Assembly: GCA_963762115.1 (NCBI GenBank)
Contig: CAVXJH010000006.1
Coordinates: 480,001 to 544,000, forward strand
Direction: 5' to 3'
Length of the DNA stretch: 64,000 bases
Origin: Candidatus Babeliales bacterium
Lineage (GTDB): Bacteria > Babelota > Babeliae > Babelales > JANWKD01
Part shown: positions 6,594 through 60,090 of the stretch, piece after piece
Position numbering within the stretch: the first letter of the stretch is position 1
Layout of the letters: each line of letters opens with the position of its first letter
Made by a program: the position numbers and the translations under genes
Notes under the pieces: generated by a model
What the model saw: the letters and a program-made list of their open reading frames with translations, nothing else
What the model was told of the DNA's origin: nothing
The model's database searches: none

Positions 6594-7493
6594 TTAATTT
6601 CCCCTTTTGTCGCCAGAATTGTCATATCTTTCTAGTAATTTAATAACTTTTGTAATAAAATTTTGAAAATTTGATGGTGGTTCGTCTAATTCTCGAATTA
6701 TTTTATGGGTGTAATGCAAAGGGCCAGAGGGAATAAATTTTGCATTTCCACAATTAAAATGATCATAGGCAGGACAGAAACAAACTGGCAAGGGGATACC
6801 TTTATTGATGATAGCTCCCTTTTTTAGTAAAAATTTTAATCTTGATAGTCTTTTCTTAAAATCTTTATTTCTTTCAATAAGAGATTCGATGATATTATTT
6901 GGTAATGATATTTTTTTGCTCAATAAAAAAGATACAGGTTCAGTTGAATCGAGATATTCACAAGCATTTTTCATGAGTTGTTCAGAAGATACAATGTCGG
7001 TATATTCTATGTTTGGGCCCCAAAAAGATCTTTTTGCCGAACTTCCTTCTACTATTTTTTTGTATTCTTGATCAAAAAACTTTAAAACGGTTTTATCTTT
7101 TTCATTGAGGTATTCATGCATAAGCATAGCATGTACTATCGTGGCTTTTTCATACAATTTTAATGTTTCATCTTTATTGTTTTTAAGATTGTTGGTTGCG
7201 ATATAGAGTTGTAGTTCTAGTAAATCATGTGCAGGAAATTGTTGAATGGTTTTTGATAGAGAATATATGTCTTGGCATGAAATATGTATTTTAAAAAGTT
7301 CTAATGAAAGTTCACTTGGCAATACAACATTTTCTAATTTTTCCATTGATTCGCTGTTTTTATTTTTTGAAAAACTTTTTATACATAATTCTGTTAAGCG
7401 AAGAGGTTGTTTTAATTCATTCATCGGATAACAATTAAAATTATGGGATATCCCAAAAAGCAAAAGAAAATAAAGATGATTATTTTTTAACAT
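6594..7493 (-). CDS. Secreted hypothetical protein with a BC-box-like motif and a degenerate ankyrin-like region
   Basis: Signal peptide; RLTELCIKSF..LPSELSLEL; LKFLLKKGAIIN. Confidence 0.55.
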   Translation of the reverse strand: MLKNNHLYFLLLFGISHNFNCYPMNELKQPLRLTELCIKSFSKNKNSESMEKLENVVLPSELSLELFKIHISCQDIYSLSKTIQQFPAHDLLELQLYIATNNLKNNKDETLKLYEKATIVHAMLMHEYLNEKDKTVLKFFDQEYKKIVEGSSAKRSFWGPNIEYTDIVSSEQLMKNACEYLDSTEPVSFLLSKKISLPNNIIESLIERNKDFKKRLSRLKFLLKKGAIINKGIPLPVCFCPAYDHFNCGNAKFIPSGPLHYTHKIIRELDEPPSNFQNFITKVIKLLERYDNSGDKRGN

Positions 7494-11984: not shown

Positions 11985-13751
11985 CTAAAGATTATTTTCT
12001 TTTTTCTTTCTTTTTAAGCGAGAGCGTATAGGCTGTGGTAAGGCGGTAAAGAGCGCTTTGGTTTGTTCTGACGCATTAATATATTGTTCAATTTTTAATT
12101 CTCTATTGTTTTCTGTAATGCAGACGCAGCCATGAAGAAATGCAATGTGTTGTGCAGAAAGGTTGTGTAGGCTTTTTTTTAGATTTTCATTAATAATAGT
12201 ATGTTCTATGAAGCCTTGTTTATGGCGGGCTGCTAATACTTTGCTGTCCAGGGAAAATGTGACTGGAAATGAACAACCAGGTAAGATTTTTATAAGTTTT
12301 CCAGATTGAGAGTTAAGTATTATAATTTTATTTTTTCGTGTTGATTCTAGGGTTAACATTGAGCCATCGGGTGATATAAGCAAATGATCAATAGAGCACT
12401 TTTTTATGGGTATGATTTTATAGAGCTTTCGTTTTTTTATGTTCCAAAAACAAAGTTCATGAAGCATTTTTTTCGTTTTATTACTTTTTCTTTTTGAAAG
12501 GGAATAGAGTCTTTTTTTATCAGGAGATAAACATAAACTGGTAATCTCTCGCCGTTTAGTATGTTCTGAAGTAAAGAAATATTTTTTTACTTTGTCTTTA
12601 GTAACATTATATGTATGTATTCCTTTTCCTTGAAGAGCGAGATAAAATATTTTATTGTCTTGATCATAGGCAAATGCATGCAATTTAGTAGTGAATAATG
12701 GCATTTGTCCGTGTATAAAGGTGATTTGCTTTTTTTCATCATCATGGAGTGAATACATTTTTATATCGTTTGTCCCTATTAAAAAAAGTAAATTTTCTGA
12801 AGGTGCGTATCTGATGGATGATGTGGAAGAATGTTTTGTTTGTGTTGATCCTAAGAGAGCACTTGTCTCTAAATCGTATGCGTGTAATGATTGATTTGCA
12901 AAAAGACAAAATAATCTTTTTGTTGTTGGGCACATCCAAGAGCTATATAAATAATGATGCGTGCCAACGGGTATATCTCTTATAGCTTTATCATGCCAAA
13001 ATTTGATTGTGGAGCTGTTTGTAGGTGATTTAAATAATAAGTTATCTTGACCTGACCAATAATACCAATAATGATCGTTTTTTTCTTCCATTCTATGAAG
13101 AGTGCATTTTTGATCGAGTGTTTTCAGGAAAGATTCTATTTTAGGCGAATAAGCTATAAGTTTATTACCCAAATAGACTGAGAGATGTTGTGTATTGCAA
13201 GTATCAAGTAATGCCAATGCAGATATGATTTTATTTTTTTGTACAAGCCGTATTGTTTTTTCTGCTATATGTTCTAAACATGTTTCAAAAAGTAAGGGGA
13301 ATGCAAGAAAATCGGCTGTTTGTAATAATTCGGAAAACGTGTATGTAGATCGTTTGCTTTCTTTAAAAAATTCTTTTAGCTGACATTTTTGATGATCTTC
13401 GTTTTGTTCATTTTTTGTTATGGCTAATAATAAAGCTATTTTTTCAGCTGTTTTGAATTGTTTTTTTGAAATGTGTGATGTCGATAGACTGAGAGCAGAA
13501 TCTTGATCAAAGCTATATTGATTATGTAAAGTGCCTATATATTGAAGTTGCGGGAGATTCCATTGTGATGAATATATAATTTCTTCCTGATCATTTTCGA
13601 GATTTACCGTAATTGGCAAAATATTGTTTGCATCGCTAGAATCATCATGAATAAAATTTAATGTTTTTTGAACTGATTCCATTGCATGAGAAGATCGTGT
13701 TAATAAAAATAAGAAGAAGGCATAAAAAAGATGTCTTTTTGTTCGAATCAT
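11985..13751 (-). CDS. Secreted BTB/Skp1-like + WD40-like beta-propeller protein, paralog 1
   Basis: Signal peptide SHA|ME; ELLQTADFLAFPLLFETC; LCLSPDKK, FWNI, ISPDG blades. Confidence 0.75.
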   Translation of the reverse strand: MIRTKRHLFYAFFLFLLTRSSHAMESVQKTLNFIHDDSSDANNILPITVNLENDQEEIIYSSQWNLPQLQYIGTLHNQYSFDQDSALSLSTSHISKKQFKTAEKIALLLAITKNEQNEDHQKCQLKEFFKESKRSTYTFSELLQTADFLAFPLLFETCLEHIAEKTIRLVQKNKIISALALLDTCNTQHLSVYLGNKLIAYSPKIESFLKTLDQKCTLHRMEEKNDHYWYYWSGQDNLLFKSPTNSSTIKFWHDKAIRDIPVGTHHYLYSSWMCPTTKRLFCLFANQSLHAYDLETSALLGSTQTKHSSTSSIRYAPSENLLFLIGTNDIKMYSLHDDEKKQITFIHGQMPLFTTKLHAFAYDQDNKIFYLALQGKGIHTYNVTKDKVKKYFFTSEHTKRREITSLCLSPDKKRLYSLSKRKSNKTKKMLHELCFWNIKKRKLYKIIPIKKCSIDHLLISPDGSMLTLESTRKNKIIILNSQSGKLIKILPGCSFPVTFSLDSKVLAARHKQGFIEHTIINENLKKSLHNLSAQHIAFLHGCVCITENNRELKIEQYINASEQTKALFTALPQPIRSRLKRKKKENNL

Positions 13752-13752
13752 T

Positions 13753-15498
13753 TTAATGTTGCCTATTTTTACCTATTAAATATGATCGTATCGATGCGGG
13801 CAATTCATCAAATAATGTACGAGTTTTTTCCGATATATTAATACATTTTTTAAATATATCACCATTTTTGTTTTCTAATATGCGAGCACAAGCATACACT
13901 AATGCAAGGTGAGGTGCTGGAAAATTATGTAAATGCTTTTTAAGACTTTCATCAGTTAGAACATGTTCTATAACGCCCTTTGCGCATCGTGTAGCTAAGG
14001 TTTTGCCATCTTGAGAAAAGGCAACAGGGTAAAAGCCTTGTTTAAATATTTTTATCATATGGCCAGATTGAGCATCAAATAAAGTAACCGGTTTTTTTTG
14101 GTCACATGCTAAAGAGAGCAATGTTCCATCAGGTGATAGAAGTAATTGATACGTATGGTTAGGTTGATAATTTTTTAAAGAAATTACTTTGGTTGGTGTA
14201 CCTTTTTCTATATTCCAAAAACGAAGTACTCCAACAGTGCATGAGTCGTTGTTATTTTTTTTTGAAAGTGAGAAAAGCGTTTTCTTGTCTTTTGATAAGC
14301 ATAAAGCCGTAAAATTGATGCTTTTGCATGAAAAGAATTGTTTTAAAGCACCATTTTCAATAGTGTATTGAAGAATTCCATTGTCTTTAAGCGCGAGATA
14401 AAAGATGAGATTATCTTCATCAAAGGCAAAACCATTGATCTCGTTAGTTGTTGTTAATGCATAGTGGTTTGAATGGATTAGTTTGCCTTCGTTAAGATGA
14501 TAACTGTAGATCACCTTGTTCTGTATAAAACATAAAATATTTTTTGATGGAGAATAGGAGAGTGATTTTGTTCCCGGTGTTGCATTTTTGCCAGCCAAAA
14601 ACGTTCCAGTTTTTAGGTCATAAAGTTGAATGGCGCCCTCAAATAAACAAAATAATTTATTTGACATAGGGCAAATATAAGACGCTTTCAGTGGAGTCCT
14701 GCTTACGGTGGAAATGGTATGCATGGTATGATCATGCCAAAAACTTATGTTTTCATGATCGAGTGATCTCAATACTAAAGAATTTGATCTATAGGGAAGA
14801 AGAAAAGAGTTTTCTCTTGGATGAAGTACCTGTTCCTGGGTTAAAGCAATAAGTAGACGACGGATTTCTGGGGAGCAATGTAATATTTGATTTCCAAGGT
14901 ATGTTAAAACATGATGATTGTCTATGTTTTCAAGTAATAAAAGTGCTTTTTGAAGCTTATTTTTTTTTATAAGATTTTTTATAGTTTGGGTTATTCTTTC
15001 TAAGCACAATTCAAAAAGCAATGGACAATCAAGAAAATCGCTGCTCTTTAAAAGATCTACAAAAATATTTATTTGTTTATTTGTTTTTTGAAGACATTCT
15101 TTTAATTGATTCTTTTGTTCTTCGCTTTGTTTTTCTTTATTTTCTTGTTCTAAACTTGCCAAGAGCATTGTTACTTTTTCAATTGTTTTTAACTGTTTTT
15201 TTGAAATGTGTGATTCTTGCAGACTCAAAGGAGCGTCAGGTTCAAACTCATATTGACTGCGCAGGTTGCCGACATAACCAAGTTGTGAGAGATTCCATTG
15301 CGATGAATAGACAATTTCCTGACGATTATTTTCGAGATTTATGGTAATGGGAATGGCTGTATCATCATGCACCAGAGCAGGCATTTTTCGATTGGATTTT
15401 TTTGTTAATTCCATTGCATGAGAATTTTGTAGTGCTAAAAATAAGAAGAGGGTAGAAAAAAGATACATTTTTGTTGTAATCATATTAATGTTTTTCAT
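13753..15498 (-). CDS. Secreted BTB/Skp1-like + WD40-like protein, paralog 2
   Basis: SHA|ME; DLLKSSDFLDCPLLFELC; LSPDG and FSQDG blades. Confidence 0.75.
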   Translation of the reverse strand: MKNINMITTKMYLFSTLFLFLALQNSHAMELTKKSNRKMPALVHDDTAIPITINLENNRQEIVYSSQWNLSQLGYVGNLRSQYEFEPDAPLSLQESHISKKQLKTIEKVTMLLASLEQENKEKQSEEQKNQLKECLQKTNKQINIFVDLLKSSDFLDCPLLFELCLERITQTIKNLIKKNKLQKALLLLENIDNHHVLTYLGNQILHCSPEIRRLLIALTQEQVLHPRENSFLLPYRSNSLVLRSLDHENISFWHDHTMHTISTVSRTPLKASYICPMSNKLFCLFEGAIQLYDLKTGTFLAGKNATPGTKSLSYSPSKNILCFIQNKVIYSYHLNEGKLIHSNHYALTTTNEINGFAFDEDNLIFYLALKDNGILQYTIENGALKQFFSCKSINFTALCLSKDKKTLFSLSKKNNNDSCTVGVLRFWNIEKGTPTKVISLKNYQPNHTYQLLLSPDGTLLSLACDQKKPVTLFDAQSGHMIKIFKQGFYPVAFSQDGKTLATRCAKGVIEHVLTDESLKKHLHNFPAPHLALVYACARILENKNGDIFKKCINISEKTRTLFDELPASIRSYLIGKNRQH

Positions 15499-15715
15499 TT
15501 TTATTATTTGTAGCTACCTTCTTGTCGGAATTGGTTTATTTTTGTTATACCAGATTTGATTTCCTCTGGTAATTCATCAAAGAGCCTTTGGCTTTTTTCT
15601 GATAATTCAATTGGTTGATTGTTGAGTGCTCTTTGTGCGCAATAATCAAGTACGGCAATATGTTCTGTCGGAAGTCTGTGTAGTTTTTTATAGAGTTCTT
15701 CGTTGTAGAGATTGT
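15482..15715. repeat. Near-identical direct repeat of ~17221-17454 (period 1739 bp)
   Basis: The gene junction and the 3' ends of paralogs 3 and 4 align with only scattered mismatches. Confidence 0.9.
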
Positions 15716-17237
15716 TTAATATAACGCCGCCGAATCCTTTTGCCGCTAATGTTTTTCCATCTGGTGCAAAATCAATATAATATTGCGAGTTATTCAAAAA
15801 AATTTTTATACAATAGCCATCTTGCGTATCAATCAATTGTATGGGGCTAGGATTTGCAAAAGATACTGCCAACATGGTGCCATCAGGCGATAATCTTAAA
15901 TGCCTTATTGGAGGGGGCATTCCATGGTATTGAATAGCTGGGTTGCATTCTATTGTTTTAAAAATTGTTTTTTTATCGATATTCCAAAAAGATATTTGTG
16001 CCTGTTCATTGCCGGAAAATAATGTTTTTCTGTCTTTTGAAAGGCAAAGTGATGTAGTCGCAAAGTTACTAAGAAATGTTTTTGATAGGCGAGGTTTATC
16101 AATTTCTAATATATCAATGCTTCCTACACAGCCTAAAAAGAGACAATTTTTTTTTGGATCGGCCGCTACTGCTCGTATATTTTTAGTATGAGTATATTCT
16201 TCCAAGATAGCAGTTAATTCTTCAGAATTTTCAGTGGTTTCATTTGGAAGATTCCATATTGAAATTTTATTTTCACCAAATATACATAAGGCTTTTTTTT
16301 CAGGTATATGCAATAAATGAGGAATTACTCTTGTTGTTTTAATGATATTCTTATGACATGGGAATTTTTCATTACAATCAAAGGTCCAAAGTAAACTATA
16401 AGGATACTGACAATAATGTATTTTGTTTTCATCGGAGAAAATTATTGATACTATTGATGTCTGAGAAGGTGTTATTTGGTATGAATCTGTATCATTAAGT
16501 AGAAGTTTTACTAGTCCTGTATTTTGAATGCAGGCTAATGATTTTCCTTCTGGAGAATAACATAATGATATTGTTTCGCCTCTAAGTTCAATTTTTTTAA
16601 ATGTGTCAGAAATGCAAGCAAGTAGTTGCTTTAAATGACGAGAATTATTTAAAAAATGATTGCCAATGGCCATTGAAAGCTCAGGAACTGTTATGCTTTC
16701 TAATAATGCTACAGCTTGGTCACTTTTATCATCTAATGATAATGATTTTGCGCGTTGATAAAGTTGATGTGCGCATGCATCAAGCAAGGGTGAGCAACTA
16801 AGAAAGTTTGCACCATTCATCAGTTCAATAGTTGCATGATCAGATTGTTTGGCATGGGTCAAACATTTTTTAAGCTGGTTTTTTTGTTTTTTTACTTGTT
16901 TTTTCGGATCTTCTTGCTCCAAAATTGCAAGAAGCATTGCTGATTTTTCAATGGTTTTTAATTGTTTTTTTGAAATTTGTGATTCTTGTAGATTCAAAGG
17001 AGCACCAGGTTCAAATTCATATTGATTATACAAGGTGCCGACATAATCAAGTTGTGAGAGATTCCATTGCGATGAATATACAATTTCTTCGCGATCATTT
17101 TCGAGATTTACCGTAATTGGCAAGAAGCCATCGTCTTGTTCTTTTTCTTCCATTGCATGAGATTGTTGAATTACTGAAAATAAGAAGAGAGCAGAAAAAA
17201 GATATATTTTTGTTGTAATGATATTAATGTTTTTCAT
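15504..17237 (-). CDS. Secreted BTB/Skp1-like + WD40-like protein, paralog 3
   Basis: SHA|ME; ELMNGANFLSCSPLLDAC; SFWNI, LSPDG. Confidence 0.75.
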   Translation of the reverse strand: MKNINIITTKIYLFSALFLFSVIQQSHAMEEKEQDDGFLPITVNLENDREEIVYSSQWNLSQLDYVGTLYNQYEFEPGAPLNLQESQISKKQLKTIEKSAMLLAILEQEDPKKQVKKQKNQLKKCLTHAKQSDHATIELMNGANFLSCSPLLDACAHQLYQRAKSLSLDDKSDQAVALLESITVPELSMAIGNHFLNNSRHLKQLLACISDTFKKIELRGETISLCYSPEGKSLACIQNTGLVKLLLNDTDSYQITPSQTSIVSIIFSDENKIHYCQYPYSLLWTFDCNEKFPCHKNIIKTTRVIPHLLHIPEKKALCIFGENKISIWNLPNETTENSEELTAILEEYTHTKNIRAVAADPKKNCLFLGCVGSIDILEIDKPRLSKTFLSNFATTSLCLSKDRKTLFSGNEQAQISFWNIDKKTIFKTIECNPAIQYHGMPPPIRHLRLSPDGTMLAVSFANPSPIQLIDTQDGYCIKIFLNNSQYYIDFAPDGKTLAAKGFGGVILNNLYNEELYKKLHRLPTEHIAVLDYCAQRALNNQPIELSEKSQRLFDELPEEIKSGITKINQFRQEGSYK

Positions 17238-17242
17238 TTTTA

Positions 17243-19000
17243 TTATTTGTAGCTACCTTCTTGTCGAAATTGGTTTATTTTTGTTATACCAGATTTGATT
17301 TCCTCTGGTAATTCATCAAAGAGCCTTTGGCTTTTTTCTGATAATTCAATTGATTGATTATTGAGTGCTTTTTGTGCGCAATAATCAAGTACGGCAATGT
17401 GCTCTGCCGGAAGTCTGTGTAGTTTTTTATAGAGTTCTTCGTTGTAGAGATTGTTGAATAGAATTGTGTTGCAAAGCCCCTGAGTTGCTAATGTTTTTCC
17501 ACTTGGTGAAAAATCAATGCAATCTTTTGCGTAGTTCCAAAAAATTTTTATACAATAACCATCTTGGGTATCAAACAATTGTATCGGGCTAGGATTTGCA
17601 AAAGATACTGCCAACATGGTGCCATCGGGCGATAATTTTAATTGTGTTATTCGAGGGGGCATTCCATAGTATGGGATGACTTGTTTACAGTCTATTTTAT
17701 TGAAGGTGATTTGGTCATCAATATTCCAAAAAGATATTTGTGCCCGATTATTGCCAGAAAATAATGTTTTTCTATCTTTTGAAAGGCAAAGAGCAGTAAT
17801 CACAGAATGACTAAGAAATACTTTTTCAATATGAGGGTCATCAATTTTTAATACATCAATGCTTCCTGCGCAGCCTAAAAATAAACAATTTCTTTTTGGG
17901 TCTGCCACCACTGCATTAATGTTTTTAGTATGAGTATATTCTTCCAAGATAGCAGTTAATTCATCAGAATTTTCAGCGGTTTCATTTAGAAGATTCCATA
18001 TTGAAATTTTATTTTCGCCAAATATGCATACAGCTTTTTTTTCAGGTATATGCAATAAATTATGAGGTATGCGTGATGTTTTTATTGTATTGCCGCTGCA
18101 AATAGATTTTTTATCACAATCAATGGTCCGTAAAAGACGATGAGGATATTGACAATAATGTATAACATTCTCATCAGAAAAAATCATTGATAAAGAGCGA
18201 GATATTGGCTTTTTTATTAAATCGGTAAGCGTAGTATCTTCTAAAACTGTTATTTGTATACCATTGGTGTTGCAAGTGCATGCTAATGATTCTCCCTTTG
18301 GGGGATAACATAATGATATTATTTCGCCTCCAAGTTCAATTTTTTTAGATGTATCAGAAATGCAGACAAGCAATTGTTTTAAATGGCGAGAATGATCTAA
18401 AAAATGATTTCCTACGCCTACTGAAAGTTCAGAAACGGTTATATTTTCTAATAATGCAATAGCCTGGTCACTTTTATCTTCTAATGATAATGATTTTGCA
18501 CGTTGATAAACTTGATGTGCGCATGCATCAAGCAAGAGAGGGCAACTGAAGAAATTTGCATCATTCATAAGTTCAATATACGTTTGCTCAGATTGTTTGG
18601 CATCGGTCAAATATTTTTTAAGCTGTTTTTTTTGTTTTTTTGGACCTTCTTGCTCCAGGCTAGCAAGAAGCATTGCTGATTCTTCAATGGTTTGTAACTG
18701 TTGTTTTGAAATTTGAGATTCTTGCAAAGTAATGGCAGAGTTTTGATCAAAAGTATATTGATCATGTAAGATGCCAACATAACGAAGTTGTGGAAGACTC
18801 CATGGTGATGAGTAGACAACTTCTTGACGATCATTTTCTAGATTTACGGTAATGGGAATGGCAGTATCATCATGCACAAGGTTAGGCATTTTTCGATTGG
18901 ATTTTTTTGTTAATTCCATTGCATGAGAATTTTGTAGCGCTGAGAATAAGAAGAGAGCAGAAAAAAGATATATTTTTGTTATCATGGATGATGCTTTCAT
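17243..19000 (-). CDS. Secreted BTB/Skp1-like + WD40-like protein, paralog 4
   Basis: SHA|ME; ELMNDANFFSCPLLLDAC; C-terminus near-identical to paralog 3. Confidence 0.75.
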   Translation of the reverse strand: MKASSMITKIYLFSALFLFSALQNSHAMELTKKSNRKMPNLVHDDTAIPITVNLENDRQEVVYSSPWSLPQLRYVGILHDQYTFDQNSAITLQESQISKQQLQTIEESAMLLASLEQEGPKKQKKQLKKYLTDAKQSEQTYIELMNDANFFSCPLLLDACAHQVYQRAKSLSLEDKSDQAIALLENITVSELSVGVGNHFLDHSRHLKQLLVCISDTSKKIELGGEIISLCYPPKGESLACTCNTNGIQITVLEDTTLTDLIKKPISRSLSMIFSDENVIHYCQYPHRLLRTIDCDKKSICSGNTIKTSRIPHNLLHIPEKKAVCIFGENKISIWNLLNETAENSDELTAILEEYTHTKNINAVVADPKRNCLFLGCAGSIDVLKIDDPHIEKVFLSHSVITALCLSKDRKTLFSGNNRAQISFWNIDDQITFNKIDCKQVIPYYGMPPRITQLKLSPDGTMLAVSFANPSPIQLFDTQDGYCIKIFWNYAKDCIDFSPSGKTLATQGLCNTILFNNLYNEELYKKLHRLPAEHIAVLDYCAQKALNNQSIELSEKSQRLFDELPEEIKSGITKINQFRQEGSYK

Positions 19001-21189: not shown

Positions 21190-24100
21190 ATGCATAATCG
21201 TTTCTCGTCAATTTTTTCATGGTCTTTTCTGAGTGTTTTTCTAGTAGCGCTTTCTCTTTTTTCTGATGTCTTTTGTATGTCTGGTGAGTTGAGCAAAGAG
21301 CGTCAAGAATGGCTTATCAAAACATCTCAACAGGCTCCTGAATATATAAAAATTATGAATCAAGGAGTTGAGGAGTCAGCTCAAATTGTAGCAGAGGCTT
21401 TGATTACTAGTCAAAAACCAAAAAAAAAGATAGATGAACTAAATGGTTTTTCTGTTAAAGCTGCCGTGCAAATTGCTTCAACGGTACAGTTAATGTCTCA
21501 AGATAATTCTGCAAAATTTGATTTTCGATGGCATCAAAAAAAGAGCGGACCCATAGCTACCATCGCCTTATTGAATGATCCTAAATTGCAAGGAGTTCTT
21601 CAAAAAAATTATCCTGGAAAAAAATTAAATGCTTTAAAGAAGAAATATAAAAAAAATGAAAAGGTGCCAGTTTGTGCTCGATGGCAGCCTATGCAATTAC
21701 CTAAAGATATTTCTGAAAAAGATTTTTGGAATCCTTCACAAGAATTTGGTGAGCAAGAAGATTTTGATTGTTCTTTGCGAAGATTGGGTATCGAAGCATG
21801 CACAGAAGATCCAGAAGCCATTAAAAAACAAAATGAAAAGTATGCTAAAAAAGAAGAAAATTTAAAGCCTTTAAAAGAAGCTGCTCTTGTATGGGAGAGA
21901 CAAGATGATAAAAGTGATGATGGCAAGAAGGTAAAACTTCAAGTAAATGATAAAGATGAGTCTGAGCAAAAAGCATGGCAGCAATTTTCATATAGTTTTA
22001 TGAGGGTTCTTCATCGTCACAATCAAGCTTTAGTTAACGCAGCTTTTTATGAGCGAAAAGAAGATGTGTCGAATATGCTTCATAGTTTATATCAAGCACA
22101 GGCTATAAAAAATGCTTTATTTGCTTTGCCAAACTATCATGAAGCTAAAGATAAGCAATCAAAAATATATTCCAATATAGTGCATCCTGGATTGTCCGAA
22201 GATTTATACACCGTGCATAGTTTTTTGGCAGATAAAAAAGAGGCTCAATTAGTTGTTGAGAGGCCATTGTCAAAAAAAGAGTGGATTGTTTTTGGGTGTA
22301 AGTTGGGCAAAGCTGTTTTAAATAATCCTTCAACAATAAAAGCATTATTAAAGCAAGATTCTTTGCATGAAGTGTTAGATAGTGAGGTAATGAAACGCTA
22401 TGTTGCAGGCTCACGGATACATACGTTTTTGGAGAAAAGTGGTAAGTGGGTAGATTTTTTTGACAATCATACTCGTTTAAAAGCTATGATTACCCCATTT
22501 GGTAGATATTTTATTAGGCCAACGCTAAAAGGGATTCTTTCTTTTACAAAGCATCGATTAGAAAGTAAAAAAGAAGAAAATAAACACACAATTCCTGTTT
22601 TGCAAAATACCTTAGATGCTTATGTGCTGGCTTTAAAGGATGAATATCAAAGAGCAAAAAAGATGATTGGCAATGATTCTGAAAATGTTCTTGTAGATGA
22701 ATATATGCAATTGCTTTTTAAGCAAGCCCAATTGCATTGTAAACAACATCAAATTATTCCATTCCCAAAAGAAGAAGTAGAAGAATTAAAAAAAAGTGTT
22801 ACATGGTTTGCTTCTGACGAGTTATTAAAAATGTTATCAGAAGAAGAAAAAAAGGAGCAAAGAGACTTTCTTGATTGTATTAATTTTTGGTTGCAATTTT
22901 ATGATGAAAAGATAAAACAATCTGGGTCATTAGGTGTTGTTTCTTTAGACGGTGCCACCAAAGAATATAATAAAAGTAAAAAAGATTTATTGGCTATAAG
23001 TTGTCAGATGCCGGTCATTGACAAGCCTATTAAAAAATCTCGTTGGAAGTTGCCTGTACCTGATGATTTATCGGTAGTTAAAGAAGTTGAAAAATTAGAG
23101 CAAAAAGCACAAAAGGATCAGGCAGAAGTTAGGCAAAAAAAACAAAAAGCAGTAGGGCAAAAATATTTTTCTTTACAACAATCTAAGGCATATCATACCC
23201 CAGAAGATTTTTTGGTTCCTAATAATCATATTGATCAAGAATTACGGGCATTTATTAAAGAACATTCAGATCAATATCGTTCTTTTTTTGATACTCATCA
23301 TCAATTATTAACTTTATTAAAGATTTCAACAGAAACATTTTTGAATATTTTTATAAAAGCTACATTAAATAAAGAATCTGAAGCAATTAGATTGCATAGA
23401 GATAATCTAGGGGATCAACTTGTAGAGCTGTTGCTTGAACAAAGACATATAGAAGAAGAACAAGAAAATTTAGAAAAAAAACGTGCCCATTTTTTTAATA
23501 GTTATTTTGCAAAAGGGGCACGACAAGCAAGAAGCTTCTTTAATTATTTCTATTCATTTATAAAAGATCACTATATACAGTGGCGTTTGAAGAAAACTAC
23601 TGTTACAAAAGATAGCATTAATAATAATTTGAAAGTGCTTAGAGCAGAAATTAAAAAGTTGAAGGGGACTCAAGAGTATATGGCATTTGATCAAATGTAC
23701 CGTTCAAGAATACATCAGCCATATATTACCGATCCACTTTTAGAGAAAAAAATAAAAACGTTAGTACGAGTTATAGACCCATTGTTTGAATATGCATTAT
23801 CTCCTGAAAAGCGATCGAAGAAACAATCATTAGATGAATTTATTGCCAAAAGGCAGCATAGAAAGCCTTTTTTAGTTAAATCACTTCCAATATATGATGA
23901 TGTGGCTCATGTGGCGGTGCCAAGACAAGGAGGAGCTGAATGTGCAATCCATGCTTTATTGAATGGGTTTGCATTATGTGAAAATGATATTAATTTTACT
24001 GAAAAACATTTAGGTGAATGTAGATTATTAGTGAAAAAAATTCGGCTTGCTTCAAAGATAAAATTGAAATTGCTAAAGAAAAATAAAAAAGGTTTTTCCA

Positions 24101-25008
24101 AAGATGGAAAAGTAGTTTTGCCTCTTGATGATGAATTAGCTATTGATCAAATAGTGTATCAAATACGCGATGATGATCCTCGTTTGAAAAAATATACTAG
24201 TGATTGGCTTGAGCCAGTGGAAACTACAAGATTGAATCGGTTGCTATTAGAAAGATTGCATTTACAAAAAAATGAAGTTGTTTTTATTACGGATTTATCA
24301 TGTTATTTAGATGGTGGAAAAACTATAAATCTTCAAGAAGCACGTAAGATTAGAAATATTCAAGCCGCTTTACAAGGTCATGGAAATTATAAATGTTCGA
24401 TTCAACTTAATAATTTTGTAAGTCATGAACGAACCTGTGGTGATAATGGTCATTATGTAACGCTTTATATCGAAAAAAATGGTTTAGAGATTATCTATAA
24501 AATGGCAAATTCATATCCTGAAATTTCATCGGAACAAATTTTTAATAATTTTATGAAGGTTATTCATACGCTTGATTTTCAAAATGTTGTAAAAGAAGAA
24601 AACGAAGAAAAAGTAGCGGATTTGTTAAGTCGTTTAGATTTTAAAAAAGTATTTATTGATAAAAGATTAAATCAAAATACAGCTCAAGCAAGTAAAAATG
24701 GTATTGAACAAAATAAGCGAAATATATGTTCAAAGAATGATCTTGGAGATGATTCATTGGTTGATTGGATCTTAGAGGGCGTGCGAAATAGTATTCTTTT
24801 AACTAAAGGAAAAGCTTTGTGGACGAATTCAGGGTTCAAGGATACAAGAGCAATACTATTAGATACTCTTGATGCACTTGAGTCTGCTCAAAGTAAGGTT
24901 GTAAAAGTTTATAAGGACTCATCAGAAGTTCCGCAGATGGTTATCTTAACTAATGAGCAAAAAGAATTTATAGCCGAAGTAAGACGTGCTTTTGCAATGG
25001 AAAATTAA
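21190..25008 (+). CDS. Large secreted protein (1272 aa) with coiled-coil regions and a C-terminal papain-fold/Josephin-like peptidase domain
   Basis: Signal peptide; QGGAECAIHALLN (Cys918), GHYVTLYI (His1088), MANS (Asn1107). Confidence 0.6.
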   Translation: MHNRFSSIFSWSFLSVFLVALSLFSDVFCMSGELSKERQEWLIKTSQQAPEYIKIMNQGVEESAQIVAEALITSQKPKKKIDELNGFSVKAAVQIASTVQLMSQDNSAKFDFRWHQKKSGPIATIALLNDPKLQGVLQKNYPGKKLNALKKKYKKNEKVPVCARWQPMQLPKDISEKDFWNPSQEFGEQEDFDCSLRRLGIEACTEDPEAIKKQNEKYAKKEENLKPLKEAALVWERQDDKSDDGKKVKLQVNDKDESEQKAWQQFSYSFMRVLHRHNQALVNAAFYERKEDVSNMLHSLYQAQAIKNALFALPNYHEAKDKQSKIYSNIVHPGLSEDLYTVHSFLADKKEAQLVVERPLSKKEWIVFGCKLGKAVLNNPSTIKALLKQDSLHEVLDSEVMKRYVAGSRIHTFLEKSGKWVDFFDNHTRLKAMITPFGRYFIRPTLKGILSFTKHRLESKKEENKHTIPVLQNTLDAYVLALKDEYQRAKKMIGNDSENVLVDEYMQLLFKQAQLHCKQHQIIPFPKEEVEELKKSVTWFASDELLKMLSEEEKKEQRDFLDCINFWLQFYDEKIKQSGSLGVVSLDGATKEYNKSKKDLLAISCQMPVIDKPIKKSRWKLPVPDDLSVVKEVEKLEQKAQKDQAEVRQKKQKAVGQKYFSLQQSKAYHTPEDFLVPNNHIDQELRAFIKEHSDQYRSFFDTHHQLLTLLKISTETFLNIFIKATLNKESEAIRLHRDNLGDQLVELLLEQRHIEEEQENLEKKRAHFFNSYFAKGARQARSFFNYFYSFIKDHYIQWRLKKTTVTKDSINNNLKVLRAEIKKLKGTQEYMAFDQMYRSRIHQPYITDPLLEKKIKTLVRVIDPLFEYALSPEKRSKKQSLDEFIAKRQHRKPFLVKSLPIYDDVAHVAVPRQGGAECAIHALLNGFALCENDINFTEKHLGECRLLVKKIRLASKIKLKLLKKNKKGFSKDGKVVLPLDDELAIDQIVYQIRDDDPRLKKYTSDWLEPVETTRLNRLLLERLHLQKNEVVFITDLSCYLDGGKTINLQEARKIRNIQAALQGHGNYKCSIQLNNFVSHERTCGDNGHYVTLYIEKNGLEIIYKMANSYPEISSEQIFNNFMKVIHTLDFQNVVKEENEEKVADLLSRLDFKKVFIDKRLNQNTAQASKNGIEQNKRNICSKNDLGDDSLVDWILEGVRNSILLTKGKALWTNSGFKDTRAILLDTLDALESAQSKVVKVYKDSSEVPQMVILTNEQKEFIAEVRRAFAMEN

Positions 25009-50742: not shown

Positions 50743-52053
50743 ATGAATTCTTTATCTAAATTGTTGAGTTGGTTATTTTCCTTATTAATTGTCTGTCCGC
50801 TTTATTCTATGGAGAATAATCCAGGACAGTTGCCATTGGCATCGATATATTTGCTGCTTAATACGGCAGATCCTGGGGAAAACTACAAAATTTTTGATGC
50901 AGATGAGCATTATGTTGTATTTGATTCATTTATTGGCATCTTGCTTGGCAAGAAGAAAACGGCCAACAATGCTCTTTTTATTTCATATGGATTAAGTGCT
51001 TGCTTAAAAAAGGAATATGAAAAGTCTATTAACTATTTTAAGTCATTAGATATTAAAGATCCTCTTGAGCAAGTGGCTATTCAGCCTGTTGAAACATCAA
51101 CCTTTCATATTGCTGGTAGAAAAAGAAATGAACTTATCATTGAAAAGAAACTATTACCATTTACGGCTATTACTGAAACAAGTGGTGGTTTGGTGAGTAG
51201 AACAAATACAATGAAAACGGTTTTTTTGAAAAATTCAAATGATGAAGCCTTATCTCATTCAATACCTATTACAAATGATACTTATGAGGCGTATGTTTTA
51301 GGCAGAAATTCTAACCTTGGCATCGAAAAAGAATGTATTGATCGATTTAAAATTCTTTTGGCGCTTGCTCAGGGTTGGCAATGGCATGATACAAAAAAGG
51401 GTCTTTATTGTTTAATTCAAAATGGGAATGATGCATTTTTGCCAATTAACCAATTTGAACATGTTGATAATCCTTTTGTTCAAGAAAATAAAAATGATAC
51501 TAATGAATGGATTGAATCACTTGATGATATTTTTCCTATGCAGCATAACTATCGCTATGCGTATTATTTTAATGCTCATGGTTCGCCTGATGGTTCAGAA
51601 GCTGGTGAATTGCATTATGTACTCAGCATGCCGGAAACAAAGATCAGTGAGTTTTTTGCTTATCTTAACAGGCAACCGAATCTTGATCTTGTTATTATTG
51701 AATCATGTTTTGTCGATGGTGAAAAAGTATTAAATCTTGTTCGGCAATATCAACAAATAGATACTTTCAATTTTGCGATTCTTTCTGCAACAAGCAAAAC
51801 AGCGGAAGCTGTTTCATCACCGTCAATAGAGTTACAGCGATATTATCCGCAATGGTTAAAAATATTTGATTGTAATGAAAAGATGCTAACATGCGATACA
51901 TCACTTCGTGTGCGCATTGGAAAGTGTCATAAAAAAATTATTGAGAATCCGCAAGGAATTTCAGCAATGCAATTGTTCAGTAAAAAAAATAAACAGTTGG
52001 GGCATAAACAGAAACCGTTACTTCTTTTGTCAGGATCTTCTCAGCAAATATAA
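50743..52053 (+). CDS. Secreted protein with a caspase/CHAT-like (clan CD) His-Cys dyad
   Basis: LYS|ME; YYFNAHGS (His279) and LVIIESCF (Cys322). Confidence 0.6.
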   Translation: MNSLSKLLSWLFSLLIVCPLYSMENNPGQLPLASIYLLLNTADPGENYKIFDADEHYVVFDSFIGILLGKKKTANNALFISYGLSACLKKEYEKSINYFKSLDIKDPLEQVAIQPVETSTFHIAGRKRNELIIEKKLLPFTAITETSGGLVSRTNTMKTVFLKNSNDEALSHSIPITNDTYEAYVLGRNSNLGIEKECIDRFKILLALAQGWQWHDTKKGLYCLIQNGNDAFLPINQFEHVDNPFVQENKNDTNEWIESLDDIFPMQHNYRYAYYFNAHGSPDGSEAGELHYVLSMPETKISEFFAYLNRQPNLDLVIIESCFVDGEKVLNLVRQYQQIDTFNFAILSATSKTAEAVSSPSIELQRYYPQWLKIFDCNEKMLTCDTSLRVRIGKCHKKIIENPQGISAMQLFSKKNKQLGHKQKPLLLLSGSSQQI

Positions 52054-58104: not shown

Positions 58105-59322
58105 TTAACTTAATGCATACCAGAGCTGCGTGAGTCTTTGGTGAAGTCCCTGCAACGCTTTTTGCAAATCCTCTCTTTGTTCAGGGGTTTCTTTTTTTTG
58201 TTCCCTTGTGGGTTCTTCTGTCTGTTGGGGGACAGGTTGATTTTTTTCACGTTCTTTTCTTGTTTTTTCTAGTTTTTCTTTTTCTTCTCTTATGCGAGCT
58301 TGCGATTTTAATCGTTCGGCTTCTCGTTGCTCTTGTTCAAGTTTTTGTTGTTGTTTTTGTTGTTCCTCAAACTTTTTTCCGATGGATGTTGTTGTTTTTG
58401 AGGGGAGTATTTTTTTTTCTGGGGCTTGTTCTTGGGATTCTTTTGTTTCCCATTTTTTACTATACTCTAATCCTAAATCTCTATATTTTTTGGCTAATTG
58501 TTTATCGATTGGATAAGCTTCTGAAGCGATATTTTGAATTAAGTTAAGAGTTTTTGTTAAAATTGGCTTATCAATAATAGTAAATACTTCAATCGCTTTA
58601 AGTAATCTATTTAATAACTCTATCTTTTTTTCCATATCATTTGTTTCATAAGCTTCATTAAGTGTTTTGTTTAACCACTTTTTTTGTTTTTTTGTAGTAA
58701 TTTGTTTACTTAATGTATCTCTTTGCGTTTTGTCTTTATAATCAAAATTGGTAAAAAATTCATTGGCCAGATTGAGCACGTTGTGTGCTTCATCCAATAA
58801 ATCGTTATCAAGATATTGGTTAGTGATGTTGTATATTACATCTAAAAATTTTTTTTTTATTTCATCAGAAGGCGTGTATTGCGTTAAGCTTATGAGTACG
58901 CTGATCAAAGTTCCTATTTTTTCTTCATATGTTTGTGATTCGTTAATACCGTTAAGTATTTCATTTAACTTTTTTTCTATTTCTTCAGGAGGAATTGTTT
59001 CAATTTTAACCGAGCCAAAGGTGTCATATTGTTGTCTTTTTTGTTCATCACTTAATGTTTCATAAGCGTCCGTAATTTCTTTGAATTTTTCTACGGCTTC
59101 TTCAGGATTGTCACCTTTGTATGTATCAGGATGCCATTGCCGTGCTAATCTGTAATATGCTTTTTTTATTTCTGCAGTTGTTGCATTTTTATTAACGTTT
59201 AAGGTTTTATAATATCCTTTGCTATCATTTGCTTCAAATTCTTTTTCTTCCATGCCAATAAGGCTAACATGTTGTGTTAATAACAAAAAAATAAGATAAA
59301 AAAATGATATTTCTGATTTCAT
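58105..59322 (-). CDS. Secreted J-domain protein (HPD intact)
   Basis: [44 protein letters not shown]. Confidence 0.88.
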
Positions 59323-59429
59323 GCCAAGCTCCTTTATTAGAATTTTTTTGATTATAATCAAGGAGTCTAAAGAATAGCAACCCTTCGCGTTTATTACGTA
59401 ATTTTATGAAATTAAGCAATAAGGGATAT

Positions 59430-59956: not shown

Positions 59957-60090
59957 CATAGTAATAAAAAACTTTGCTCTTATTACTATTATAAACTATG
60001 CCCTTAAAATCGCTTGTTATTCTTAGGTCAATGCATACCAGAGCAGGGTAAGTCTTTGGTGCAGTTCTTGCAACGCTTTTTGCAAATGTT
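59957..60090. repeat. Direct repeat of ~58027-58170 (yhhQ start, upstream region and J-gene 3' end)
   Basis: catagtaataaaaaa and tcttattactattataaactatgcccttaaaatcgct occur in both places. Confidence 0.88.

Follow-up and report, generated by a model that had tools for sequence, protein, structure and literature searches.

The 64,000-nucleotide stretch of DNA analysed here (the window; contig CAVXJH010000006.1 of a Candidatus Babeliales bacterium, positions 480,001 to 544,000) encodes an array of four paralogous proteins, g1 to g4, each comprising a signal peptide, a Skp1-like domain, a short helical box, a WD40 propeller and a C-terminal helical region. According to structure prediction the N-terminal domain (N-domain) belongs to the BTB/POZ-Skp1-Elongin C fold superfamily, and profile searches place its descent in Skp1 and not in the BTB domains of the Cul3 type, an ancestry that becomes visible via the wider family. 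Binding of the array proteins to a cullin of some kind is likely, and we regard it as somewhat better than an even prospect that they are exported effectors acting as single-chain adaptors of the Skp1-cullin-F-box (SCF) type, a proposal in which genes, architecture and ancestry come from the sequence, and fold and pose from models. The proteins would undergo Sec export followed by release through a type II system; the predicted docking site of the Skp1-derived domain and its following helices is the N-terminal part of a host cullin, with Cul1 as the most likely scaffold, where the WD40 propeller would offer host proteins to the ligase for ubiquitylation. Because the family lacks the F-box-binding tail of Skp1 and often carries in cis a helix resembling the first helix of the F-box (F-box-H1), a single chain may replace both Skp1 and the F-box protein, and because the top face of the propeller is the more variable one, each copy may address different targets.

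Fold and Skp1 ancestry of the N-terminal domain

The AlphaFold model of g3 residues 38-219 (predicted local distance difference test, pLDDT, 93.4) aligns best with Skp1 (1ldk_D; Z 11.3, root-mean-square deviation 2.7, 118 residues aligned), followed by ASK1 (Z 10.7), Elongin C (10.5), yeast Skp1 (10.2) and the Nac1 POZ domain (10.0), with the BTB/3-box regions of KEAP1 (9.7) and SPOP (9.5) aligning over the domain together with the following helices. The top 46 structural rows consist entirely of Skp1, Elongin C or BTB-fold entries (Z 6.6-11.3); Foldseek returns no match in the PDB at E ≤ 0.001, with Skp1 nonetheless in the top ranks. The model and the structural alignments thus bear out the BTB/Skp1/Elongin C fold that the initial annotation had proposed for this domain. 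Its further identification as a Cul3-type BTB-propeller protein holds for the fold and fails for the family, since the profile searches find the sequence to be Skp1-derived. In the PDB, a 70-row family profile matches Skp1 structures best (E 2.5e-23 to 1e-13), followed by Elongin C (8e-11 to 9e-6), and no BTB domain scores better than 0.088. Using 15 domains from this genome, a second profile retrieves 2,836 library proteins at E ≤ 0.001, and among the best 150 of these, 149 of which were scanned with Pfam, Skp1_POZ is found in 135, Skp1 in 109 and BTB in 13. Given this ancestry by sequence, Cul1 is a likelier scaffold than Cul3.

The Asn/Asp-Phe/Tyr pair of the Skp1 ANYL motif is kept in all eight members of the subfamily, in which Gln72 is invariant. 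The strict phi-x-E motif defined for Cul3-binding BTB adaptors (PMC3616122) is absent from the four array proteins, whose α3/β4 loop reads QY[EST]F[ED]. Residue 1 of the g3 domain model aligns to about residue 29-31 of BTB-zinc-finger domains, and only some 9-20 residues, the first of them of low confidence in the full g3 model, separate the signal peptide from the domain. Pfam reports nothing credible in the first 200 residues of any of the four proteins, the Atlas match of g4 residues 45-200 to Skp1 clusters (0.88, below the 0.9 mark) is a lead only, and a word-index search with the four full proteins gave nine matches, of which two are array proteins, one is a fragmentary relative and the other six are WD40 proteins of a generic kind. 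The array proteins stand outside the Skp1, F-box and Cul3-BTB families as defined.

Against the 1,896 open reading frames (ORFs) of this genome, a profile of the four N-domains detects four paralogs outside the array (E 1e-6 to 6e-5), and the family counts about 16-20 members here (20 ORFs at E < 0.001 with an iterated profile; 16 matches and 18 ORFs with other profiles). Pfam, applied to 14 paralog pieces, assigns Skp1_POZ to five (E up to 0.004; three over the cut-off) and BTB to two (below the cut-off). Across the phylum, family profiles match 44 of 201 genomes, and 80 of 251 with another profile, in a distribution that is patchy by family; Skp1_POZ exceeds its Pfam cut-off in 44 of 251 Babelota genomes and in none of 14 control genomes. 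The F-box-binding tail of Skp1 (PF01466) has no match in the four window proteins or in the 251 Babelota genomes, a search in which the positive control was silent; the model is functional elsewhere, matching 109 of the 149 library proteins. By these sequence comparisons the family keeps the cullin-binding half of Skp1 and not its F-box-binding tail. The window domains are, on the same kind of evidence, a genuine but strongly diverged branch of the Babelota family: all four window proteins are recovered by a profile whose 24 rows come from other Babelota genomes (domain E 6e-10 to 3e-6, with 0.068 for the best reversed decoy), and the profile-profile comparison of the window and canonical subfamilies gives an HH probability of 96% (E 3.5e-9, 90 columns). 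Most extracted members display a signal-peptide-like start followed by WD40 or leucine-rich repeats (LRR). A tentative scenario, to which we give a little less than even credence, is that Babelota captured a eukaryotic Skp1 and joined it in cis with an F-box-like helix and with WD40 or LRR repeats, the fusion then growing into a phylum-wide, horizontally traded library of exported single-chain SCF adaptors; the family tree was built quickly, leaves 56 of its 97 inner branches open and gives neither donor nor order of events.

Other family members show further architectures, including (i) a propeller-like region preceded by two or three tandem Skp1/BTB-like domains (L005:1475-6254, L010:1466-4021 and L127:5618-12680); (ii) weaker Skp1-like domains with LRRs and C-terminal hydrophobic segments in tandem arrays (L008:1547-4557 and L009:1393-5589, on contigs C3 and C5 of this genome); and (iii) a stand-alone protein of 191 residues with a signal peptide and a Skp1-like domain with Skp1_POZ over the cut-off, a candidate cullin decoy (L006:1820-2392; C3:33816-34391). 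Near the end of contig C6, a Skp1-like ORF adjoins a WD40 ORF as if one gene had been split (L007:2496-4164), and its N-terminal part recurs, shortened, at the end of contig C3 (L011:3000-3380), which suggests a pseudogene or an assembly effect. Hydrophobic or CaaX-like tails occur in several members of other Babelota genomes (L126, L124, L014, L033 and L023), and the CaaX-like ends CLVS and CAIS on paralogs in this genome; such tails could anchor the proteins to host membranes.

Predicted docking on a cullin

The complex was modelled from g3 residues 38-219 (70-row alignment) and residues 1-270 of the diatom protein P0084 (73-row alignment), classed as cullin 1 from source names and PDB comparison only. 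The pair scores 0.66, and the best of three controls 0.25; separate runs agree in at least 76% of contacts, with a partner pLDDT of at least 79. Of 157 solved complexes, 116 attain the score mark applied, as do 2 of 215 mismatched pairs, a calibration that is rough for our own alignments. Multimer prediction, suggested alongside the initial annotation, accordingly passes its controls with diatom Cul1, the only cullin run. The predicted contacts comprise g3 residues 68-76, 79-87, 144-147 and 183-186, the last segment lying in the helices after the core, and, on the cullin, Tyr48, Tyr52, Tyr56, Thr60 and residues 119-130. They match the four adaptor contact regions and the cullin helix H2 described for KLHL3-Cul3 (PMC3616122), in a canonical pose. 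Among giant-virus contigs of metagenome-assembled genomes, two compact cullin-1-like proteins are encoded (L128:2436-4475 and L131:699-2792), 33-37% identical to cellular cullins in the N-terminal region.

After the Skp1-like domain, an L[PS]x[EDH]-hydrophobic pattern, which resembles the consensus of the first F-box helix, occurs in 8 of 43 rows, whereas 2,000 shuffles average 0.29 rows and never exceed 3 (50 of 70 rows were kept after dereplication, seven of them having no usable tail). The corresponding helix of the window proteins aligns with it, g3 reading PELSMAIGNHF where other members read LPVELSVLIGHHM and LPRELSVLLGSKI. PF12937 has no match in this genome. An F-box reading of these helices is suggestive, and a 3-box-like reading fits too.

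Array, propellers and probable export

The source genome comprises 1.53 Mb in 7 contigs. Among 80 listed relatives of its RpsA, those bearing a specific name are mostly Ca. Babeliales, Dependentiae or TM6, many others being labelled uncultured bacterium and some otherwise. All cultured Babelota infect protists, as strict intracellular parasites (PMC12172432). The four ORFs are co-oriented, with intergenic gaps of 1, 5 and 5 bases, and g4 is probably the first gene of an operon g4-g1 (Table 1); promoter and terminator scans stay at chance level (32 against 34.6 and 5 against 3.7, respectively). The array is flanked by the gene of a 323-residue membrane protein and a divergently read transketolase gene. 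In alignment, each of the four products displays (i) a basic and then hydrophobic N-terminus with a SHA-ME end, the signal peptides being assigned by sequence pattern; (ii) the N-domain motif [ED]L...[AS][DN]F[LF]....L...C; and (iii) LPxxI[KR]S at the C-terminal end. All elements of the array as initially described, namely signal peptide, N-domain motif, propeller and LPxxI[KR]S tail, are therefore present in the four ORFs. The identity of g2-g4 to g1 is 32-43%, a paralogy far above chance.

Table 1. Genes of the array and regions of the g3 product, with positions in the window
Feature	Positions	Strand	Extent	Description
g4	17243-19000	minus	585 aa	signal peptide, Skp1-like domain, helical box, WD40 propeller, C-terminal helices
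g3	15504-17237	minus	577 aa	architecture as g4; copy used for modelling
g2	13753-15498	minus	581 aa	architecture as g4
g1	11985-13751	minus	588 aa	architecture as g4; propeller type that of the single syntenic copy in G177
g3 Sec-type signal peptide	17154-17237	minus	residues 1-28	followed by Met-Glu; assigned by pattern
g3 Skp1/BTB-fold domain	16734-17126	minus	residues 38-168	model without N-terminal BTB dimerisation extension
g3 helices after the Skp1 core	16611-16724	minus	residues 172-209	degenerate F-box-H1/3-box-like helix
g3 seven-bladed WD40 propeller	15711-16601	minus	residues 213-509	
g3 C-terminal four-helix region	15522-15701	minus		ends in LPEEIKS; no Pfam or Atlas match

WD40/propeller models of Pfam match all four proteins (best E 1e-9 to 5e-15, mostly under the curated cut-offs). 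The full g3 model (pLDDT 86) comprises a seven-blade propeller, seen as 28 strands in the DSSP line and thus as seven four-stranded blades, and four C-terminal helices. The propeller matches WD40 structures at Z 30-33, and the full model matches β-TrCP and Cdc4 in the PDB over 424-464 columns, more than the propeller; the best viral matches of the full model are giant-virus BTB/WD40 proteins. Comparison of g3, g4 and the G195 relative, with the propeller faces set by hand from DSSP, finds 30 of 57 top-face and 21 of 69 bottom-loop positions variable (Fisher p 0.017), and the top face exceeds the bottom in five of five pairs. The nonsynonymous-to-synonymous ratio (dN/dS) is below 1 in all domains, except for some signal peptides and one short comparison of the helical box; in the three closest pairs it is 0.26-0.33 in the Skp1-like domain and 0.39-0.45 in the propeller. 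Positive selection was not found, the nonsynonymous rate (pN) lying at or below the synonymous one (pS) in 20 of 20 face-by-pair cells. Of the propeller diversification proposed initially, the greater variation of the presumed target face is retained, and the domain-wise analysis gives no dN/dS above 1 for the propeller. Between the g1/g2 and g3/g4 types, identity is 47-59% in the Skp1-like domain and 21-27% in the propeller.

For the C-terminal helices there is no usable Atlas match, and C-terminal pieces of 70 residues have a Pfam match in none of three, a search that short diverged boxes can escape. A reading of the terminal LPxxI[KR]S as a SOCS/PRANC box found no support in Pfam or the Atlas. 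In this genome the tail was found only on Skp1-like/WD40 paralogs.

A genome of the same genus (G177) contains a single copy at the same site with the same neighbours, so the array probably grew locally. In a genome of another genus (G195), two copies, one g2-like and one g3-like, lie at a different site; the synonymous divergence (dS) between g3 and its counterpart there is 0.20-0.66 across domains, with 0.20 in the propeller, against 1.68 for transketolase, which points to a recent transfer between the genera, with one core gene as yardstick. The array copies are mosaics at the nucleotide level: the linker behind the signal peptide is common to g2 and g4 (identity up to 0.92), the first half of the Skp1-like domain to g2 and g3 (0.81-0.86), and the C-terminus to g3 and g4 (0.94-0.99).

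With respect to export, this genome encodes two secretins and two ATPases of the type II secretion system/type IV pilus class, in line with the type II core components reported from TM6 (PMC4776705). Signal-peptide ends of the form small residue-Met-Glu are found in 130 of 909 ORFs of at least 200 residues, against a mean of 5 and a maximum of 9 in 20 shuffles; in-window examples are 50743-52053, 58105-59361 and 60023-61489. In the 224 signal-like ORFs whose hydrophobic stretch is followed by a Met, Glu comes next in 77 (34% against a background of 4.5%), and Glu, Asn, Gln or Asp in 122. Cleavage before Met would give a mature end resembling a eukaryotic NatB-type N-terminus, possibly avoiding host N-degron decay and marking effectors. 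The adjacent signal-peptide ORFs at 58105-59361 and 60023-61489 contain J-domain-like stretches (WHPD/WHSD) and a common C-terminal LQxLHQRLTxLWYAL, and their products are possible exported Hsp70 co-chaperone mimics. Further signal-peptide ORFs with ankyrin-like or unassigned domains lie at 44308-45952 and 6594-7493 of the window, two of these products ending in CTLQ, and 21190-25008 encodes a 1,272-residue signal-peptide protein without a Pfam match, which near its C-terminus reads GGAECAIHAL...GHYVTL and resembles a cysteine-protease fold by eye. Elsewhere in this genome, C6:349268-361607 is a tandem array of about 12 signal-peptide genes with the common start MKK..I.LAFIFVGMANAMQ.

Alternative explanations and relation to known systems

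Several observations weigh against Cul1-type adaptors. In structural alignment, Skp1, Elongin C and BTB domains differ by no more than about 2 in Z score, so that the structure settles the fold but hardly the subfamily. The window N-domains alone yield Pfam matches to Skp1 or BTB in none of four cases, an 8-row profile of the window subfamily finds neither Skp1 nor BTB in the PDB at E up to 10, the IPLPN motif is lost in the four domains, and the window clade sits on a stem branch of 2.07 changes per site in the quick tree. The alignment behind both the fold and the complex predictions contained many canonical Skp1-like rows; since SCF complexes have been solved as well, the docking pass shows likeness and does not demonstrate binding by this particular copy. 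The 21 interface positions have a mean conservation of 0.35 within the subfamily, against 0.40 elsewhere, where the buried core is included. The stand-in cullin belongs to an unrelated host, and because its whole-length PDB score is nearer Cul4A and Cul3 than human Cul1, the choice of scaffold is a soft one. The F-box-like pattern was picked after seeing the sequences and is found in none of the window rows, and the Pfam F-box models match one of ten hand-picked family tails, weakly (E 0.087, helix 1 only), and none of the four window tails (PF00646/PF12937). Finally, a Sec signal alone reaches only the periplasm.

The stem branch, the IPLPN loss, the absence of a Skp1 match by window sequences alone and an interface conservation that is not raised would all suit a Skp1 mimic by origin whose diverged branch has lost cullin binding and now serves as a scaffold or binds another Skp1 partner; this we consider unlikely, as the ANYL-equivalent pair and Gln72 persist throughout the subfamily, the Skp1-like domain remains constrained in close pairs and the complex model passes its controls. 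Adaptors for Cul3 or another cullin, as the initial annotation proposed, in a diverged branch that changed scaffold, are somewhat less likely still: the KEAP1 and SPOP alignments spanning domain and following helices, the giant-virus BTB/WD40 proteins as closest viral folds of the whole model, and a near-invariant Phe followed by a mostly acidic residue in the phi-x-E loop, within the predicted interface, speak for them, whereas the sequence ancestry is that of Skp1, the strict phi-x-E spacing is missing, the model shows no N-terminal dimerisation extension, and cullin-adaptor interfaces are analogous yet not interchangeable (PMC4403949).

The docking model would fit equally well a cullin-bound decoy that blocks host SCF, or shields the propeller cargo, in either case dispensing with ubiquitylation, and the genome does contain the stand-alone Skp1-like protein without a propeller on contig C3; a decoy would, however, not need a variable propeller with its top face varying more than its bottom loops, and many copies of the domain carry WD40 or LRR repeats in the same chain, which makes this explanation improbable. 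A location in the periplasm or on the bacterial surface, with no role in host ubiquitylation, is very improbable: only a Sec-type signal is visible, and passage beyond the periplasm is our extrapolation, but we know of no bacterial partner for a Skp1-derived domain, and a cullin match is found in none of the 201 Babelota genomes searched, where the positive control was silent. Signal peptides are also common in the phylum on repeat proteins presumed to be host-directed (PMC4378268, PMC6561590).

As single-chain SCF-type adaptors, the array proteins would resemble eukaryotic Skp1 together with F-box/WD40 receptors such as β-TrCP and Cdc4 in the Skp1 fold, the ANYL-type motif and the predicted cullin pose. 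Unlike the Skp1/F-box pair, they comprise one polypeptide with a bacterial signal peptide and without the F-box-binding tail of Skp1, and unlike SCF receptors they contain at most the first F-box helix and an additional C-terminal helical region without match. The arrangement of BTB fold, box helices and propeller in one chain recalls the Cul3 adaptors KLHL3, KEAP1 and SPOP, to whose four cullin-contact regions those of the array model correspond, and the giant-virus BTB/POZ-WD40 proteins (mimivirus R739 and R786); in contrast to both, the array proteins have no strict phi-x-E and, in the model, no long-form dimerisation extension, and display Skp1 ancestry and an export signal.

Among bacteria, the cullin hijackers described in the literature examined are F-boxes that borrow host Skp1 or BTB domains in environmental chlamydiae (PMC4209131). 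The PEX1 BTB-LRR proteins of Protochlamydia are likewise an expanded tandem family of a protist-infecting bacterium, with a BTB fold, repeats and a proposed ligase hijack, but comprise a Pfam BTB domain with LRRs, the tested families having type III signals, whereas the array proteins are Skp1-derived, mostly WD40-bearing and Sec-signalled, in another phylum; at that time, Domman et al. (2014) knew BTB domains among prokaryotes only from the Parachlamydiaceae (PMC4209131). The F-box effectors AnkB of Legionella and GALA of Ralstonia also redirect host SCF (PMC4209131), and bind host Skp1 through the F-box; the array proteins would instead replace Skp1 itself. F-box and WD40 proteins are mentioned for Babelota/TM6 in PMC4378268 and PMC4776705, and other ubiquitin-related proteins in PMC4378268; in the accessible parts of these two papers and of PMC6561590 and PMC12172432, the term BTB is absent and Skp1 occurs once, in a reference title, and none of these terms appears in nine supplements of PMC4378268 or two of PMC4776705. 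No description of bacterial Skp1-domain fusions was found in the literature searched, which covered few subscription papers; database annotations may exist, because Pfam already detects Skp1_POZ in some Babelota genomes.

If the proposal is true, hijacking would take place at Skp1 itself, one step upstream of the described bacterial F-box effectors and by a new way into SCF, and would represent a bacterial re-invention, on Cul1, of the one-chain design of Cul3 adaptors. The family would also provide a natural minimal Cul1-recruiting module, of interest for the design of targeted degradation, and is testable in yeast or amoebae without culturing the source organism. For the Babelota, it would supply a concrete, testable function for much of the so far unexplained secretome of an entire parasitic phylum.

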